64,000 nucleotides of DNA from Halichondria panicea (lineage: Eukaryota). The notes under the pieces were generated by a model. That model did not search any database. It worked only from the letters and a program-made list of their open reading frames with translations, and was not told the DNA's origin. Position 1 is the stretch's first letter. The number at the start of each line of letters is the position of its first letter. The DNA is taken from assembly GCF_963675165.1 (NCBI RefSeq), contig NC_087392.1:142022-206021 (forward strand), read 5' to 3'. Shown piece by piece: positions 29,901 to 35,900 of the stretch. Both the position numbers and the translations under genes were made by a program.

Positions 29901-32900
29901 TCAAATCAATTTTTTTCAAACATGCTAGACCATTGAGTAGCCTCCCCTGAAGAGAAGGCCTGCTACTACTAACTGCTTGTACAACATTATATTGGGAACA
30001 TGCAACATTATTGGATATTTGTTCCCGTAAAATGTCCTATAATACTGAATTTATCACGAAAATATTCGTATTGAAAGTCATACACAGAGCTATTTAGGTA
30101 GCTAGCTAGCTAGCTAGAGACAAAGCTGTAGTTTTGTTGTACAGCTATATACAGCTATTTTCTTTCTGACAGTAGCAGTAGTATAGTGACTTTCACCAAA
30201 GTTAGTATTAGATGGGCGTGGCCTGTCCATTAGGCTATCGTCCACACTGTTGCAGGCTGTGGGTCTTTTGTTAGCATAGCAGGCTACGTGTAGCTATCAG
30301 CTCTTTCTCAGAGATGGGCTTAGAAACCTTCAATCGAACTTTCTATCTACTTCCTTCAATCCACTTCCGTTTGTTGTGACGTCTTTGTTTTACTGAGCAT
30401 ACACGTTGTTATCCTGCGTTAGCCGGTATCTGGCTAATGGTTAGCGCATGCGCAAGCAGTCGATACCAGGCCCTCTCTTCGAGGAAGAGCGGCCTGGAAT
30501 TGAGGCTAGACCATTGAGGTGATCTCACACTCTTCCTGTTTAGGCTATAACTTGCTAACATGCAGGAGTCACACTGGAGGGCTGTGTGTGGACATGAACA
30601 TGGCCCCTGCTCAAGGCCTGACCTCACCAGTGATATCCACTACAGACCTGGTTAGAAGAGAGGCCAGCAAGACAAAGAGGAGAGAGCCCTCCACCATCAT
30701 GACCAACACAGATGTAGTGAAGGCCACTGAAAAGCAACTGGTGTGTGTGTGTGTGTGTGTGTGTGTGTGTGTGTGTGTGTGTGTGTGTGTGTGTGTGTGT
30801 GTGTGTGTGTGTGTGTGTGTGTGTGTGTGTGTGTGTGTGTGTGTAGTGTCAGCCATTGTGTAGCTCTTATTGCTGCTAATTGCTGTCTGCAGGAGTTTGT
30901 AGCAGTCTGTCCCAGTAAGCCAGCCAATGGGGAGATGGCAGCTCAGTGCAAGAAGACACTATCACCCTTAGAGCTCTCTCAAATCACTATAGGTACTGTC
31001 TGCAATGTGTCCAGCGTGTCGTTGTTATGTCATAATTACAGATCCTGGAGTGATGGATTTCGGGTCTGTTGTAGTGAACAGTATTGCAGAGCTTAACTTG
31101 TCCATTAAGAACCATACGTCCAATCACATTAGCCTCAAGATGAAGGTATTGTATGTTGCCATAGCTACCAATACTCTACACACCCAAATATACAGTTGGC
31201 TGGCAGTACTGTAACGTGCACAAGTTGCTATGGTAACAAGTCCACCCTTCAACTGATAGTACCCCCAGTGTCCTACACACAACTACCTCTCAGTTTGTCT
31301 CACAAGGAAACTGGAATTATTGAAAGGTACGCATGTGTTTGTGTACAATAATCACATACTGTGTTCTTGTATAACCTTATAAACATACCTTTATCCTGAT
31401 TGCATACCCATTGTACACACACACGCACGCACACACACACACACACACGCACACACACACACACACACACACACGCACGCACGCACGCACACACACACAC
31501 ACAAGCACACACACACACACACACACACACACACACACACACACACACAACACACACACACACACACACACACACACACACACATGCACACACACTCACA
31601 CAGGAGCATAGAGTACACAGTGAATGGTCAGGTTAGTGCTCACCTCCCTGTGAAGGCCTCAGTCACTCAGCTCTCTCTACTACTCTCCACCAACACTCTC
31701 TCACTAACTGAACCACCTCTGGCCAGGCAAAGCTCAGGTACCTGCCACCCAGACCACCCCCCCTTACCTATATACCCTCACCTACAGGACTACTTGGCTC
31801 TGTGGTCATCAGCAACCCTCACAGTATACCAGTTTTCTTCCGTTGGCTAGCCAAAGAGGGCGTTGAAACAAGTATCTTCACCATGCTGCATCCATCAGGT
31901 ATATGCATGCATGATGTCTCATCCCTAAGCTCATCATTATGCATGTGTGTTTGTAGGCTATGTACCAGCTAATGGCAGCCTGGAGTGTGGGTTTGTGTGT
32001 CTACCCTCCTACATGTCCCCTAAGACAGCACAGTTCCTGTTGGATGATGGCAGAGATTCCCTCCAAGACTCACCAACCAACATCCTCTCACTTGTCACAG
32101 AGGTAGGTGTGATCTGTTCGTGTACTATTGACCATAATAATTTCTCTTGTAGTTCAAAAAGCCAGTCTGTAATATTCGTGAGAAGCGTATATTGTTTGGG
32201 ACTATTCCCCTCAACCTCACCACCACACGCACCATGCACATTGACAACACTGGAGACTGCCATGCGTACTACAAGGTACACAATAATCATGACACTTGCA
32301 ATCTAACTGATAATGTAGCTATATGTATTACTCTACGTATAATGAAGGTCCGTACATACATCAGCTTATTTCTCGTACAATGCTGGTCTCCTGTCCCTAA
32401 CATGCCAGCTCTTGGCTCCACTAAGAGTCACCGTGGCCATCACCATCTCCTCCCCTTCTCCTGCTGATGCTATAGTCTCTCCATTCTCATTGCAGCACAC
32501 ACTTTTACCATCGAATCTAGAGCCAGTATTGTTCACATAAGCCACATGTACTCTATTCTCGTAGGCTCTAGCTGGAATGACGTGCTCAACCAGCGGCCTT
32601 ATCCACTGGTCAGCAACTGCTGTAGGCACTAGAATGAGGTTAGCTCCTCTTAGTACTAGCGTACGCACAGCCTCAGGAAACTCAACATCGTAGCAAATCA
32701 AAACACCGATCTTGAAGCCACAACACTCGACAATCTCTGAGAAATTCTCTGCTGGTGTAAAAACATCTTCCCATCGATATCCCTCGTCATCGATCCAAAG
32801 GTGGACCTTTCGATGGTTGAGGATTGATTGGCCCTCCTTGTCAATAAGCTGAGCAGAGTTGTAGCATTTGAAACCATCTTCTGAGATGACTCTCTCTGGA

Positions 32901-35900
32901 TAGCCGTACAGTATAGCCACTCCGGTCTCTTTAGCAAGTGCTGACAACTCTTGAAAAGCTTCTCCAGTGTTTGGCTGTGCTACGTCCCTCATCTCCTCAG
33001 CAGTTAAATAATAGCCAGTTAGAAACAGTTCAGGGAAGACTATAATAGATGCTCCTGCTTCCTTTGCCTTGATAGTCTGCTCTCTCATCTTGCTCAGGTT
33101 GGCCTTCACATCTTTATTAGTTGCAATGCCCTGGAACAAAGCCAGTACAGTTGAAGCTGTAGCCATGCTGTTTTATAGATGGTGGTCAATGTAGCAAGTA
33201 ACAATTTGCATTTTGTGTGGGCGTACATTTATACACTAGTGACACATGTTCCTTGTACATTTGCAGATGTTGGATTCGTCCCCCCATCCTGGCCTCAGAG
33301 TTTTCCCAGAGAGTGGGATGGTGCCAAGGGGTGGGGCTGCCAGTCTACACGTGCTACTCTGCCCAGAGACCACGGGGACCATTGATATAAGAGTTGTGGT
33401 GGGTTTGAGAGACGGCAAGACACTTGGACTGAGACTAGCAGGCCTGGTGGAGCAGCCTACACTGACAGTGGATCAGGTATAGTAGGGGGGGGTGGGGTAT
33501 GGATCTCTCATGTGTTGTTGTGTCTTAATTAGGAGTTATTTCGATTTGGAAGTGTGTTCTGTGGAGCAAAGGCCACTCAAAGTTTCACTGTCACGAACAA
33601 GGTACTGTACAAGATGGTCGATGCTGTAGGACATGTTGTTTATAATAATGTATGTGGCTTCTTGCAGGGCTCCTCAAGTGCTGAGTTGACATTTAACCTG
33701 GCCCACCTCCCAGACTTCTCCCTCCTCCTGCCTAGCTCTGAGGACCCCTACAGTGAGTCTATAGCCTCTTACTCCACCTCTCATGGTGTTTCCTTGCAGA
33801 TGAGCCAGCTGTTAGATCAGATGGTGCTGGAACATATAGTCTCAATATCCCTGGAAAGTCCAGCGCCACGTGCAAACTCGAGTTCTGTCCTAAAGATGTG
33901 AGTTGTGGTGTACTGTTTGTGATAATAATAATAATAAGCTCTATTTGTTCCTCAGGTGGCAGCGTATGACTTCCTGCTCCCGTTACTAGTGAATGGTTTG
34001 AAGGCCCCAGCCCCCCCTCCCTCACCATGGCCTCCATCACGGACATCCTCCTACATAGCACACTCACAAGGAACAGGTAAGCATTTAATACAAACCACCA
34101 TCAGTATGTTTGGCAGCGTTATACACTATAGCACAGTGGAGCATAGTCATCAGTACTGTATGATTGTTACTCTCTCTCTCTCTCTCTCTCTCTCTCTCTC
34201 TCTCTCTCTCTCTAGGCTTGAGTTTGCCTTCACTCTCACTTACTCCAACGCGTCGAGTGTTAGCCACAGCTTTACGTCCTCCTCTTGTCGTTCCTAACCT
34301 CCAGTTTGACTTTGAGCTGACAGGGGACTGCGACAAACTAACTCAACACCACAAGGTATGATCATAGCTTCAGTGTGTGCTAGTCACTAGTGGACTCTTT
34401 ACAGGCCTTGACCCTAAGCAACGTGAGTGAAGAGGCCATCTCCTGGACACTGGGTAAGACAGCGGAGTACACAAGAGTGGAGGATGGGACCTTCCAGTTG
34501 GTCTTTCCCTCTGGACAATCCTTCCAGCCACCAGTCATCTCATTGGACCCCTCCAGTGAGCAGGAGGAGGGGGCAGAGTGCCTACTAGGACCTGGACAAT
34601 CAGTCAGCCTCACTGTATTATGCAGACCAGGTGCCTGTTGTATTGCAGTATACACATTTGTACATGATACAATTCTTATACATGTACATGAGCTTTTTAA
34701 GTGTGTCATATTCTACAGCACACCATGGCAAGTTTTCGGCCACCCTCCCCCTCATCGTCAATGGCAACACGTCCCAGCCATACCGTACCCTCGTGTTGAC
34801 TGCCCACTTGCCTACCAGCTCTATCTCAGTGACCCCCTCCTGTATAGACATCCTCCCAGTGCCTCTGGGCATCTCATTGGCCGCTCAGTTTACAGTGTTC
34901 GTACAAGGATTCACTCAGTAAGCCATTCTGTACATACAGGCTGTAGCAGCATCACACTAGATACTCTTATGTACACTGTAGTATCTTTATTTTGAACTTT
35001 GACTTTCTCATTGCCTACATGTATAATTATGCTATTTTTGTAGATCAGTCTATGTAGTATGTTTAGTTGTGAGCAAAGGTATTATCTGTGTTGCCCACAC
35101 AGGCCAGTTGAGCTGGACATAGCAGTGCCTGTAATGAGAGAGGGTGTGTGCTTCTCTGTGTGCTTCCCTGGTGGCTCTAGAGTGGAGAGTGGGGACAAGG
35201 TGGAGCTACCATGCACACTGGAGTTCAGCTCAACACATCCAGTCTCCATCTCAGACACTATCATCTTCTCTGACAAGACAACAGGGAAACAGTGAGTGAA
35301 TCATTCCAGACCTGTGTGCCTGTCACTGTACGTATGTACTGTGCCACTAGGTACTACAAGTATATAATTTCAAGGAAAACCTCAGCTTTGGTGATTTTCC
35401 TGAAATGAACATGTTTTGATAGCTAACTTTGATTCCCTGTAACTTTGAGTTGGGATTTGCCTGATTAAACGAAATTCTGCAATTTGCAAGGTTAGACCTC
35501 CCCTACTCTACAGCACCTGATGTACATACATAGCCAAGTATGCTCACATTACCAGTTGTGTTACAGTACATTGTGTTCCTGTAGGAAGGTCCTCCCGTTC
35601 ACAGTGTGTGCTGATAATAGTCTCTTCTCAGTCTACAAGTTCCTTGCTCAGAACGTTCATATCAGCTCTGTCACTCTGGCTTCCAATATACCTACATTCG
35701 TCCTCCATAGCCAAGAGTAAGTCAGCCAGACTTTGTTACACTAGTCTATTCCATGCCTGCTCAGTTTCGAGGGCTCTGGGCGGAGTAGTTCTGTTGCATC
35801 GTTCAGTTCTCAAGGCTCAGTGGTGAAAGACACAGCACTTGGAGTCAACACCAGCACCACCTTCAGTGAAATGTTCCATCAGGTGAGAGTTATCATCAAT

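Follow-up and report, generated by a model that had tools for sequence, protein, structure and literature searches.

This locus raises the question of how an uninterrupted, bacterial-type hydrolase gene came to lie antisense within an intron of a ciliary gene in the sponge Halichondria panicea, and whether it is a working gene of its host. The stretch analyzed, hereafter the window, comprises 64,000 nucleotides of contig NC_087392.1. An earlier reading made from the letters alone (the sequence-only reading) had placed a carbon-nitrogen (CN) hydrolase in it at 32366-33166 and had offered two origins, an ancient horizontal gene transfer (HGT) or a retro-inserted eukaryotic NIT-family paralog. 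Judged by the ratio of nonsynonymous to synonymous substitution (dN/dS), host-like codon usage and a conserved intron position, the hydrolase gene is a long-resident, functional host gene. Its source was probably a bacterium.

The coordinates, strand and ATG start given earlier for the open reading frame (ORF) were exact: on the minus strand, 266 codons followed by TAA form a single exon. NCBI already lists the gene in this species: the product is 100% identical to the NCBI/UniRef entry "hydrolase in pqqF 5'region-like [Halichondria panicea]". Pfam PF00795 (CN_hydrolase) matched residues 9-255 of the 266 with an E value of 2.1e-46 (158.8 bits against a cutoff of 23.2). Fifteen ORFs of at least 170 aa were counted in the six frames of the 64-kb window, and it is the end-to-end match to CN_hydrolase that sets this one apart from chance, as had been argued from its stop-free frame. 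The gene and the codons discussed below are as follows.

32366..33166, minus strand: complete coding sequence of a predicted nitrilase-superfamily amidase (Pfam, identical NCBI protein, dN/dS, AlphaFold2)
33029..33031, minus strand: GAA codon of the predicted catalytic Glu46, motif FPELF (sequence and alignment)
32807..32809, minus strand: AAG codon of the predicted catalytic Lys120, motif HRKVHLW (sequence and alignment)
32693..32695, minus strand: TGC codon of the predicted nucleophile Cys158, motif LICYDVEFPE (sequence and alignment)
32768..32770, minus strand: codon of Glu133, a clade-specific charge reversal beside an insertion that follows the catalytic lysine

The motifs FPELFLTGY, HRKVHLW and LICYDVEFPE, from which a Glu-Lys-Cys triad had been proposed, were all read in the 266-aa product, and the triad was borne out by alignment with 75 sequences from eukaryote-like contexts, 73 bacterial sequences and two solved enzymes. 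Glu46 is invariant (75/75, 73/73 and both solved enzymes), as is Lys120 in every sequence aligned, and the column of Cys158 holds cysteine in 74 of the 75 eukaryote-context and all 73 bacterial sequences. Asp160 and Glu165 are likewise invariant or nearly so across the 75 clade members and 73 bacteria. An AlphaFold2 model computed from a 31-sequence alignment (mean predicted local distance difference test, pLDDT, 93.4; predicted template-modeling score, pTM, 0.92) shows the alpha-beta-beta-alpha sandwich fold of the nitrilase superfamily, with its lowest confidence at about residues 121-130, inside an insertion at residues 121-133. With this predicted model as the query, Foldseek returned solved superfamily members at a probability of 1.00 and template-modeling (TM) scores of 0.80-0.86 to many of them. 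The top match was the amidase of Nesterenkonia AN1 (TM 0.80-0.83), and Pyrococcus horikoshii PH0642 superposed with a root-mean-square deviation of 1.7-1.8. The best solved relatives by sequence were Pyrococcus 3ivz/1j31 and, again, the Nesterenkonia AN1 amidase, at E values of about 1e-28. No NCBIfam equivalog scored above its cutoff, the best being N-carbamoylputrescine amidase with 125 bits against 410, and therefore no specific enzyme name is justified.

We conclude that the product is a predicted active thiol amidase of the nitrilase superfamily. By analogy with the family, the substrate would be a small non-peptide amide whose carbonyl carbon is attacked by Cys158, with Glu46 as the general base; Lys120 would steady the tetrahedral intermediate, and ammonia would be released before the thioester is hydrolyzed to the free acid. 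The start codon has A at -3 and G at +4, and the N-terminus enters the first strand of the fold directly, no targeting extension preceding it; the enzyme is probably cytosolic.

The gene that harbors the hydrolase was examined through its splice sites, its Pfam domains and its collinearity with a second sponge assembly (L002), all of which uphold the earlier claim of antisense nesting in an intron of a CFAP47-like gene. The intron runs from a donor at 32276/32277 (...TACTACAAG/GTACAC) to an acceptor at 33265/33266 (...TTTGCAG/ATGTTGG). It had been put at about 960 bp and described as nearly filled by the ORF; the length is in fact 989 bp, and the filling stands, with 89 and 99 nt left over beside the ORF. 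The GC content of these remnants is 0.34 and 0.37, against 0.47 for the ORF.

32277..33265, plus strand: host intron, GT...AG, 989 nt, splice sites read from the sequence and flanking exons conserved
32153..32276, plus strand: CFAP47-like exon directly upstream of the intron (FKKPVCNIREKRILFGTIPLNLTTTRTMHIDNTGDCHAYYK), with 79% identity to L002 12395-12270
33266..33478, plus strand: CFAP47-like exon directly downstream (MLDSSPHPGLRVFPESG...TLTVDQ), part of an Ig-like domain, matched in L002 and L090
33228..33233, minus strand: TATAAA, a possible core-promoter element by motif only, intronic, 67 nt upstream of the ATG

L093 has a match to the upstream exon too, and L090 a partial one. The downstream exon showed 69% identity to L002 9914-9702 and 94.5% to L090 1787-1569, together with a weak Ig_CFAP65_4th match (E=4.5e-4). 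Plus-strand ORFs downstream of the intron matched Pfam Ig_CFAP47 and, weakly, CFAP47; upstream of it, a HYDIN/CFA65/VesB Ig-like domain was found (E=4.6e-8) along with weaker Ig_CFAP65, ASH and CH matches. By these domains the host gene is CFAP47-like. The TATAAA element was dropped as the hydrolase's own promoter, since it is conserved neither in the 88% ortholog of L090 nor at the other orthologous loci.

Orthologous introns in relatives, a comparison that the sequence-only reading had proposed, were located. The window from 26.9 to 44.0 kb is collinear exon by exon with L002 (tblastn), where the counterparts of exons 32153-32276 and 33266-33478 enclose a tandem pair of hydrolase genes. The gene was found in L002, L003, L090 and L093, and the same CFAP47 intron carries it in at least three sponge assemblies other than the window. 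Identities to the window protein and the positions of the copies are listed here.

L002 and L003: 69% identity, same intron, two tandem copies
L090 (GCA_022075345.1): 88% identity, same intron, beside the downstream exon, a second copy cut by the contig end
L093 (record labelled "sponge metagenome"): 61% identity, adjoining the upstream flanking exon, the contig stopping before the downstream exon
L004: 63% identity, adjoining downstream CFAP47 exons within a rearranged, partly duplicated segment
L091: 71% identity, adjoining a DcpS gene, a relocated copy

In L093 the N-terminal CFAP47 exons and the neighboring Sua5/YrdC gene are also collinear with the window. By the method of Nei and Gojobori, dN/dS was 0.19 (dS 0.28) between the window gene and its 88% ortholog in L090, and 0.22 between L004 and L093, dS being about 0.28-0.30 in these two pairs; deeper pairs gave 0.07-0.16 with dS saturated.

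The composition of the gene is host-like, as emerged from the comparison of codon usage with the flanking exons that had also been proposed. Its GC content is 0.47 against 0.455 for the window, and its GC content at third codon positions (GC3) is 0.455 against 0.54 in 2,509 codons of host exons. Relative synonymous codon usage (RSCU) of the hydrolase correlates with that of the CFAP47 exons at r=0.57, where size-matched host subsamples gave 0.67 +/- 0.08, and the correlation was negative with all eight of the bacterial homologs tested, whose GC3 ranges from 0.49 to 0.99. In each sponge, hydrolase GC3 follows local GC. The hydrolase is presumably transcribed in H. panicea.

Several of these loci show duplications in place. 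The tandem copies within the CFAP47 intron lie at 10001-10795 and 11399-12193 in L002 and at 3860-4654 and 5771-6565 in L003. The copies of L002/L003 are 95% identical with a pairwise dN/dS of about 0.6, and their differences cluster in one short stretch, TAVKTRWMQELTEH versus TASTPKWIPELIKY, a clustering that points to a conversion patch or to one copy being under relaxed selection. In L090, a short piece similar to the upstream CFAP47 exon and to the beginning of the intron (2872-2976) sits between copy A and the copy cut by the contig end (3285-3932), so that the duplication unit may have included part of the host exon. L004 contains two versions of the CFAP47 3' portion together with the neighboring LIM/PET gene (7536-9459 and 15248-20370), and the hydrolase is joined to only some of the CFAP47 exons; behind this lies a segmental duplication, a rearrangement or a fault of the assembly.

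To place the gene among its relatives, 5.8 billion proteins were searched, of which about a quarter carry names; the ORF-style gene calls of this database would miss family members that contain introns. The contigs that carry relatives with 42-54% identity are long, and their ORF calls are few and fragmented, with eukaryotic domains among them (TUDOR, Pkinase, RRM, CAF1, Reeler, eIF2A and one large ankyrin-repeat ORF). These relatives are uninterrupted ORFs without exception, and groups of two to four frequently stand in tandem. A neighbor-joining (NJ) tree was built from 150 sequences, namely 75 from eukaryote-like contexts, 73 bacterial and the two solved enzymes, and is unrooted. A bipartition of 60 sequences, initially considered as the eukaryote clade, was rejected at a support of only 20/100. 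Further context look-ups placed the sequences that wandered out of it in eukaryote-like contexts as well, and the clade was therefore enlarged to 75 sequences, which are monophyletic in 183 of 200 bootstraps; within them the CFAP47-nested subgroup forms a clade in 200 of 200. The sponge clade is separate from the Pseudomonas/Streptomyces group. With a profile of the clade, no member scored below 296 bits and no bacterial sequence above 279, and a protein from outside the tree, the Geodia barretti "Hydrolase in pqqF 5'region" (P0134), scored 381 bits. Named clade members come only from demosponges, Halichondria panicea and Geodia barretti, both annotated by NCBI.

The clade is also marked by sequence features. 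An insertion of 5-7 residues follows the catalytic lysine throughout, two short bacterial insertions are absent, and position 133 is glutamate in 66 of the 75 eukaryote-clade sequences, against lysine or arginine in the bacteria and both solved enzymes; Glu133 may thus be a determinant of substrate specificity. Two clade members, P0127 (550 aa) and P0128 (545 aa), each hold two complete CN_hydrolase domains with catalytic motifs in both halves and appear to be fusions of tandem copies. By these comparisons the hydrolase is a member of an old, multi-copy demosponge family and not a lineage-specific oddity.

The nearest named bacteria (Streptomyces, Pseudomonas, Xanthobacter/Ancylobacter and others) share 36-43% identity over the full length and score 187-197 bits, and one partial bacterial match reached 47% over residues 8-216. 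The prokaryote-like type proposed in the sequence-only reading thus held, both in the single exon and in prokaryotic amidases and bacterial matches that outscore Nit2. In P. syringae, the homolog is flanked by a 559-aa flavin amine oxidase on one side and PqqF (TIGR02110, 690 bits) on the other; in Streptomyces, its neighbors are an amino-acid permease and an oxidase of that same type, 565 aa long. A DavB-like flavin oxidase adjoins the hydrolase in 68 of 80 bacterial loci (L010-L089); among the 12 without it are those of a cyanobacterium, Xanthobacter/Ancylobacter and deltaproteobacterial metagenome-assembled genomes (MAGs). Judged by gene context, the bacterial oxidase-hydrolase pair is DavB/DavA of lysine catabolism. 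In Pseudomonas, davBA presumably lies beside pqqF, and the observed layout is consistent with this. DavB is a 62.4-kDa monooxygenase dependent on flavin adenine dinucleotide (FAD), and DavA, a hydrolase of 29.3 kDa, turns 5-aminovaleramide into 5-aminovalerate (PMC4093655). Across phyla, the DavB-like oxidase keeps 64-83% identity (outside the query genus), far above the conservation of the hydrolase between bacteria and sponges. The bacterial hydrolase family probably holds more than one function.

In the window and at 15 sponge-type loci, no DavB-like oxidase was detected (tblastn, up to 10 kb on each side, the rest of the genome not being searched), and the HGT tables for Amphimedon hold no entry for PF01593, the DavB partner. 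The closest enzymes of known activity, namely DavA and the Nesterenkonia AN1 and Pyrococcus PH0642 amidases, cleave short aliphatic or omega-amino amides, in the case of DavA 5-aminopentanamide. Because of the insertion after the lysine, the change from Lys/Arg to Glu133 and the absence of DavB nearby, we infer a substrate related to, but shifted from, that of DavA. By this analogy the sponge enzyme would work like a DavA-type small-amide amidase, and it should not be filed as DavA.

As to how such a gene arose in a sponge, an ancient bacterium-to-sponge transfer is the best supported origin, one that we consider probable and not proven; its direction and timing are what we infer. It is favored because all sequences with names that fall outside the sponge clade belong to bacteria, because the family is uniformly intronless within intron-rich genomes, because its named members are demosponges only, and because the counterpart in Amphimedon has an Alien Index above 45. 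The HGT origin that the sequence-only reading had put forward is therefore the better supported of its two, with bacteria as the nearest outsiders, and it falls short of proof on account of the unrooted tree and the lack of a close donor.

Vertical inheritance of an ancient eukaryotic CN hydrolase, lost in most lineages and never gaining sponge introns, would equally yield a eukaryote clade that forms a single bipartition apart from the bacteria and whose members differ among themselves (identity down to 42%) as much as they do from bacteria (up to 46%), a fully host-like composition and a flag from just one of four HGT methods in Amphimedon. We nevertheless regard it as unlikely, as only bacteria, and no other named eukaryote, follow the sponge clade among the named sequences, the 75 deeply diverged copies have stayed without introns beside intron-rich neighbors, and the Alien Index of the Amphimedon gene is high. 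The second origin of the sequence-only reading, a processed retrocopy of an intron-containing NIT1, NIT2 or UPB1 inserted into the CFAP47 intron, did not survive comparison and is very improbable. A single exon inside an intron and a fold common to Nit2 (TM 0.82) would agree with it, but mouse Nit2 reached only 73.8 bits (1e-19), worm NitFhit 46 (4e-11) and fly beta-alanine synthase 30.9 (1.5e-6), against 104 bits for prokaryotic amidases and still more for the named bacterial matches, and the NCBIfam model de_GSH_amidase (Nit1-type) gave 100.8 bits against a cutoff of 355. No poly(A) remnant was seen, the longest run of A in the 300-nt 3' flank being 3 (target-site duplications were not looked for); relatives down to about 42% identity are uninterrupted and include no intron-containing parent; and the nested position is older than the divergence of at least four sponges. 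By these sequence comparisons the gene is not an ortholog or retrocopy of NIT1, NIT2 or UPB1. The sequence-only reading had also foreseen an ordinary nested gene with metazoan NIT-family best matches and a conserved location: the nesting is indeed conserved and the gene is a long-standing, ordinary nested one, but it is not of the NIT family.

Sponges harbor dense microbiomes, and contamination of their assemblies is a recognised problem (PMC10542158), so a symbiont or other bacterial sequence misjoined into the sponge assembly had to be considered. This can practically be dismissed, given that sponge exons lie less than 100 nt away on both sides in one contiguous sequence, that the identical gene occurs on a 5.8-Mb NCBI contig and on an independent 1.97-Mb ENA contig (whose name records 159x coverage), that the arrangement recurs in L002, L003, L090 and L093, and that GC3 is host-like, unlike that of the bacterial homologs. 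A decaying insertion, silent and without function, with an ORF intact by luck or recent arrival, might be suspected from an intron without a canonical poly(A) signal and from the unconserved TATA-like element. It is very unlikely against dN/dS of 0.19-0.22 at dS of about 0.28-0.30, and lower in deeper pairs, against invariant catalytic residues and an ORF intact in every species examined, and against the expression of the Amphimedon family member.

Several points weigh against a functional, DavA-like gene of bacterial descent. The 89-nt intronic flank 3' of the ORF holds no canonical AATAAA; weak poly(A)-signal variants occur at +37 (AATACA) and +173 (AATATA). The intended outgroups, Pyrococcus 3ivz and Nesterenkonia 5jqn, fell among the bacteria, and therefore the tree is unrooted and the sponge clade is only separate from bacteria, not nested within them. 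No donor is close: in the trimmed tree alignment the best bacterial identity is 0.46, to P0118, a sequence classed as bacterial solely by falling outside the clade, and the minimum within the clade is 0.42, an overlap that leaves room for great age or for vertical descent with losses. The bacteria nearest to the sponge clade in the NJ tree, the deltaproteobacterial MAGs, have no DavB neighbor, and the DavA-like functional inference is therefore weakened. That the clade is confined to demosponges is read from two named members, a single "sponge metagenome" label and published work. Finally, the Amphimedon gene was flagged by one of four HGT methods, and it is likely, on a match by UniProt best-hit name, Pfam domain, length and exon count, to belong to the same family as the clade.

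On the transfer that we favor, an early demosponge or an earlier ancestor would have acquired one bacterial DavA-like amidase gene, which then adapted fully to host composition. Repeated tandem duplication would have produced a multi-copy family without intron gain, and one copy lineage would have landed antisense in the CFAP47 intron, where purifying selection would have maintained it while at least four sampled sponges diverged. A more elaborate proposal is that the captured amidase, remodeled by the insertion and Glu133, became a sponge-specific family for amides from symbionts or diet, the CFAP47 copy being retained in its intron all the while through coupling of its expression to the ciliary (choanocyte) gene by shared chromatin or antisense transcription; we consider this quite doubtful.

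Within the window, other features lie around the nested gene. Long (TG)n/(CA)n microsatellites occupy the CFAP47 introns upstream of it (30743-30860 and 31300-31640) and produce spurious ORFs of Cys-Val and His-Thr repeats. A Sua5/YrdC gene (about 26300-26600, minus strand) lies upstream of CFAP47, and a gene for a PET domain and five LIM domains (prickle/testin-like; 44218-45072 and 45774-46310, minus strand) is convergent with its 3' end. The order Sua5/YrdC-CFAP47-LIM is kept in L002, and L093 keeps Sua5/YrdC-CFAP47 up to the hydrolase, where its contig stops. A RING/TRAF/MATH gene lies at 3510-4601 (minus strand). An uninterrupted 401-aa ORF at 60575-61780 (minus strand) that matched nothing in Pfam at E<=0.001 is possibly a further single-exon gene, and a proline-rich, low-complexity ORF of 798 aa that runs from the window edge (2-2398, plus strand), also with no Pfam match, is probably one large exon of a neighboring gene.

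This family is apparently already on record as an HGT candidate. The name YPQQ, which stands in the published candidate list, we take to be the Swiss-Prot mnemonic of "hydrolase in pqqF 5'region", NCBI's name for the H. panicea and Geodia proteins. Conaco et al. 2016 (PLoS One e0151092, PMC4784904, S1 Table) listed Aqu1.224310 of Amphimedon queenslandica, with the UniProt name YPQQ, PF00795, one exon, 816 bp and GC3 0.426, on Contig13473. Its expression was 70 reads per kilobase per million (rpkm) in larvae and 176 rpkm in adults, homologs were reported in Haliclona amboinensis and Ephydatia muelleri, and it received a confidence score of 1 of 4, an age score of 4 of 5 and an Alien Index above 45 (PMC4784904). 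A 2026 compendium of metazoan HGT uses Conaco et al. 2016 as a source. A literature search found no paper on sponge HGT with "carbon-nitrogen hydrolase" and none naming "hydrolase in pqqF". What is new here is the conserved antisense nesting in CFAP47, the duplications in situ, the explicit clade, the evidence for selection and the DavA-type bacterial context.

The locus is a well-anchored case of a bacterial-type enzyme gene fully integrated in an animal genome, and it may serve as a useful positive control in the debate on contamination versus sponge "HGT candidates". If Aqu1.224310 belongs to the clade, this low-confidence candidate gains clade monophyly, a Geodia member, tandem expansion and DavA-type affinity. 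No new biological question is opened: the enzyme class is ordinary, nesting is common, and earlier work has already recorded the family with a possible bacterial origin.

Among the closest known systems is DavA of Pseudomonas (5-aminopentanamidase or delta-aminovaleramidase, EC 3.5.1.30, "hydrolase in pqqF 5'region"), with about 41-42% full-length identity to the sponge protein, the same size (about 266 aa, 29 kDa) and the same catalytic residues; it differs in its pairing with DavB, which none of the sponge loci shows, and in that the sponge protein has the insertion after the lysine and Glu133. The amidase of Nesterenkonia sp. AN1 (NitN; 3hkx, 4izs, 5jqn) and Pyrococcus PH0642 (1j31, 6ypa) are compact, single-domain enzymes, about 260 residues long, whose substrates are short aliphatic amides; both are prokaryotic and share 28-33% identity with the sponge protein. 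Metazoan NIT1, NIT2 (omega-amidase) and UPB1, whose genes contain introns in animals, have the superfamily, the fold and the triad in common with it, but the similarity is much more distant. Aqu1.224310 resembles the window gene in PF00795, single exon, length (816 versus 801 bp) and host-like GC3 and codon usage, whereas its report describes no nesting in CFAP47. As in nested opposite-strand intronic genes of animals generally, a complete guest gene is stably inherited within a larger host intron; the sponge guest is unusual in being bacterial-type and duplicated in situ in some species, while the arrangement itself is common.

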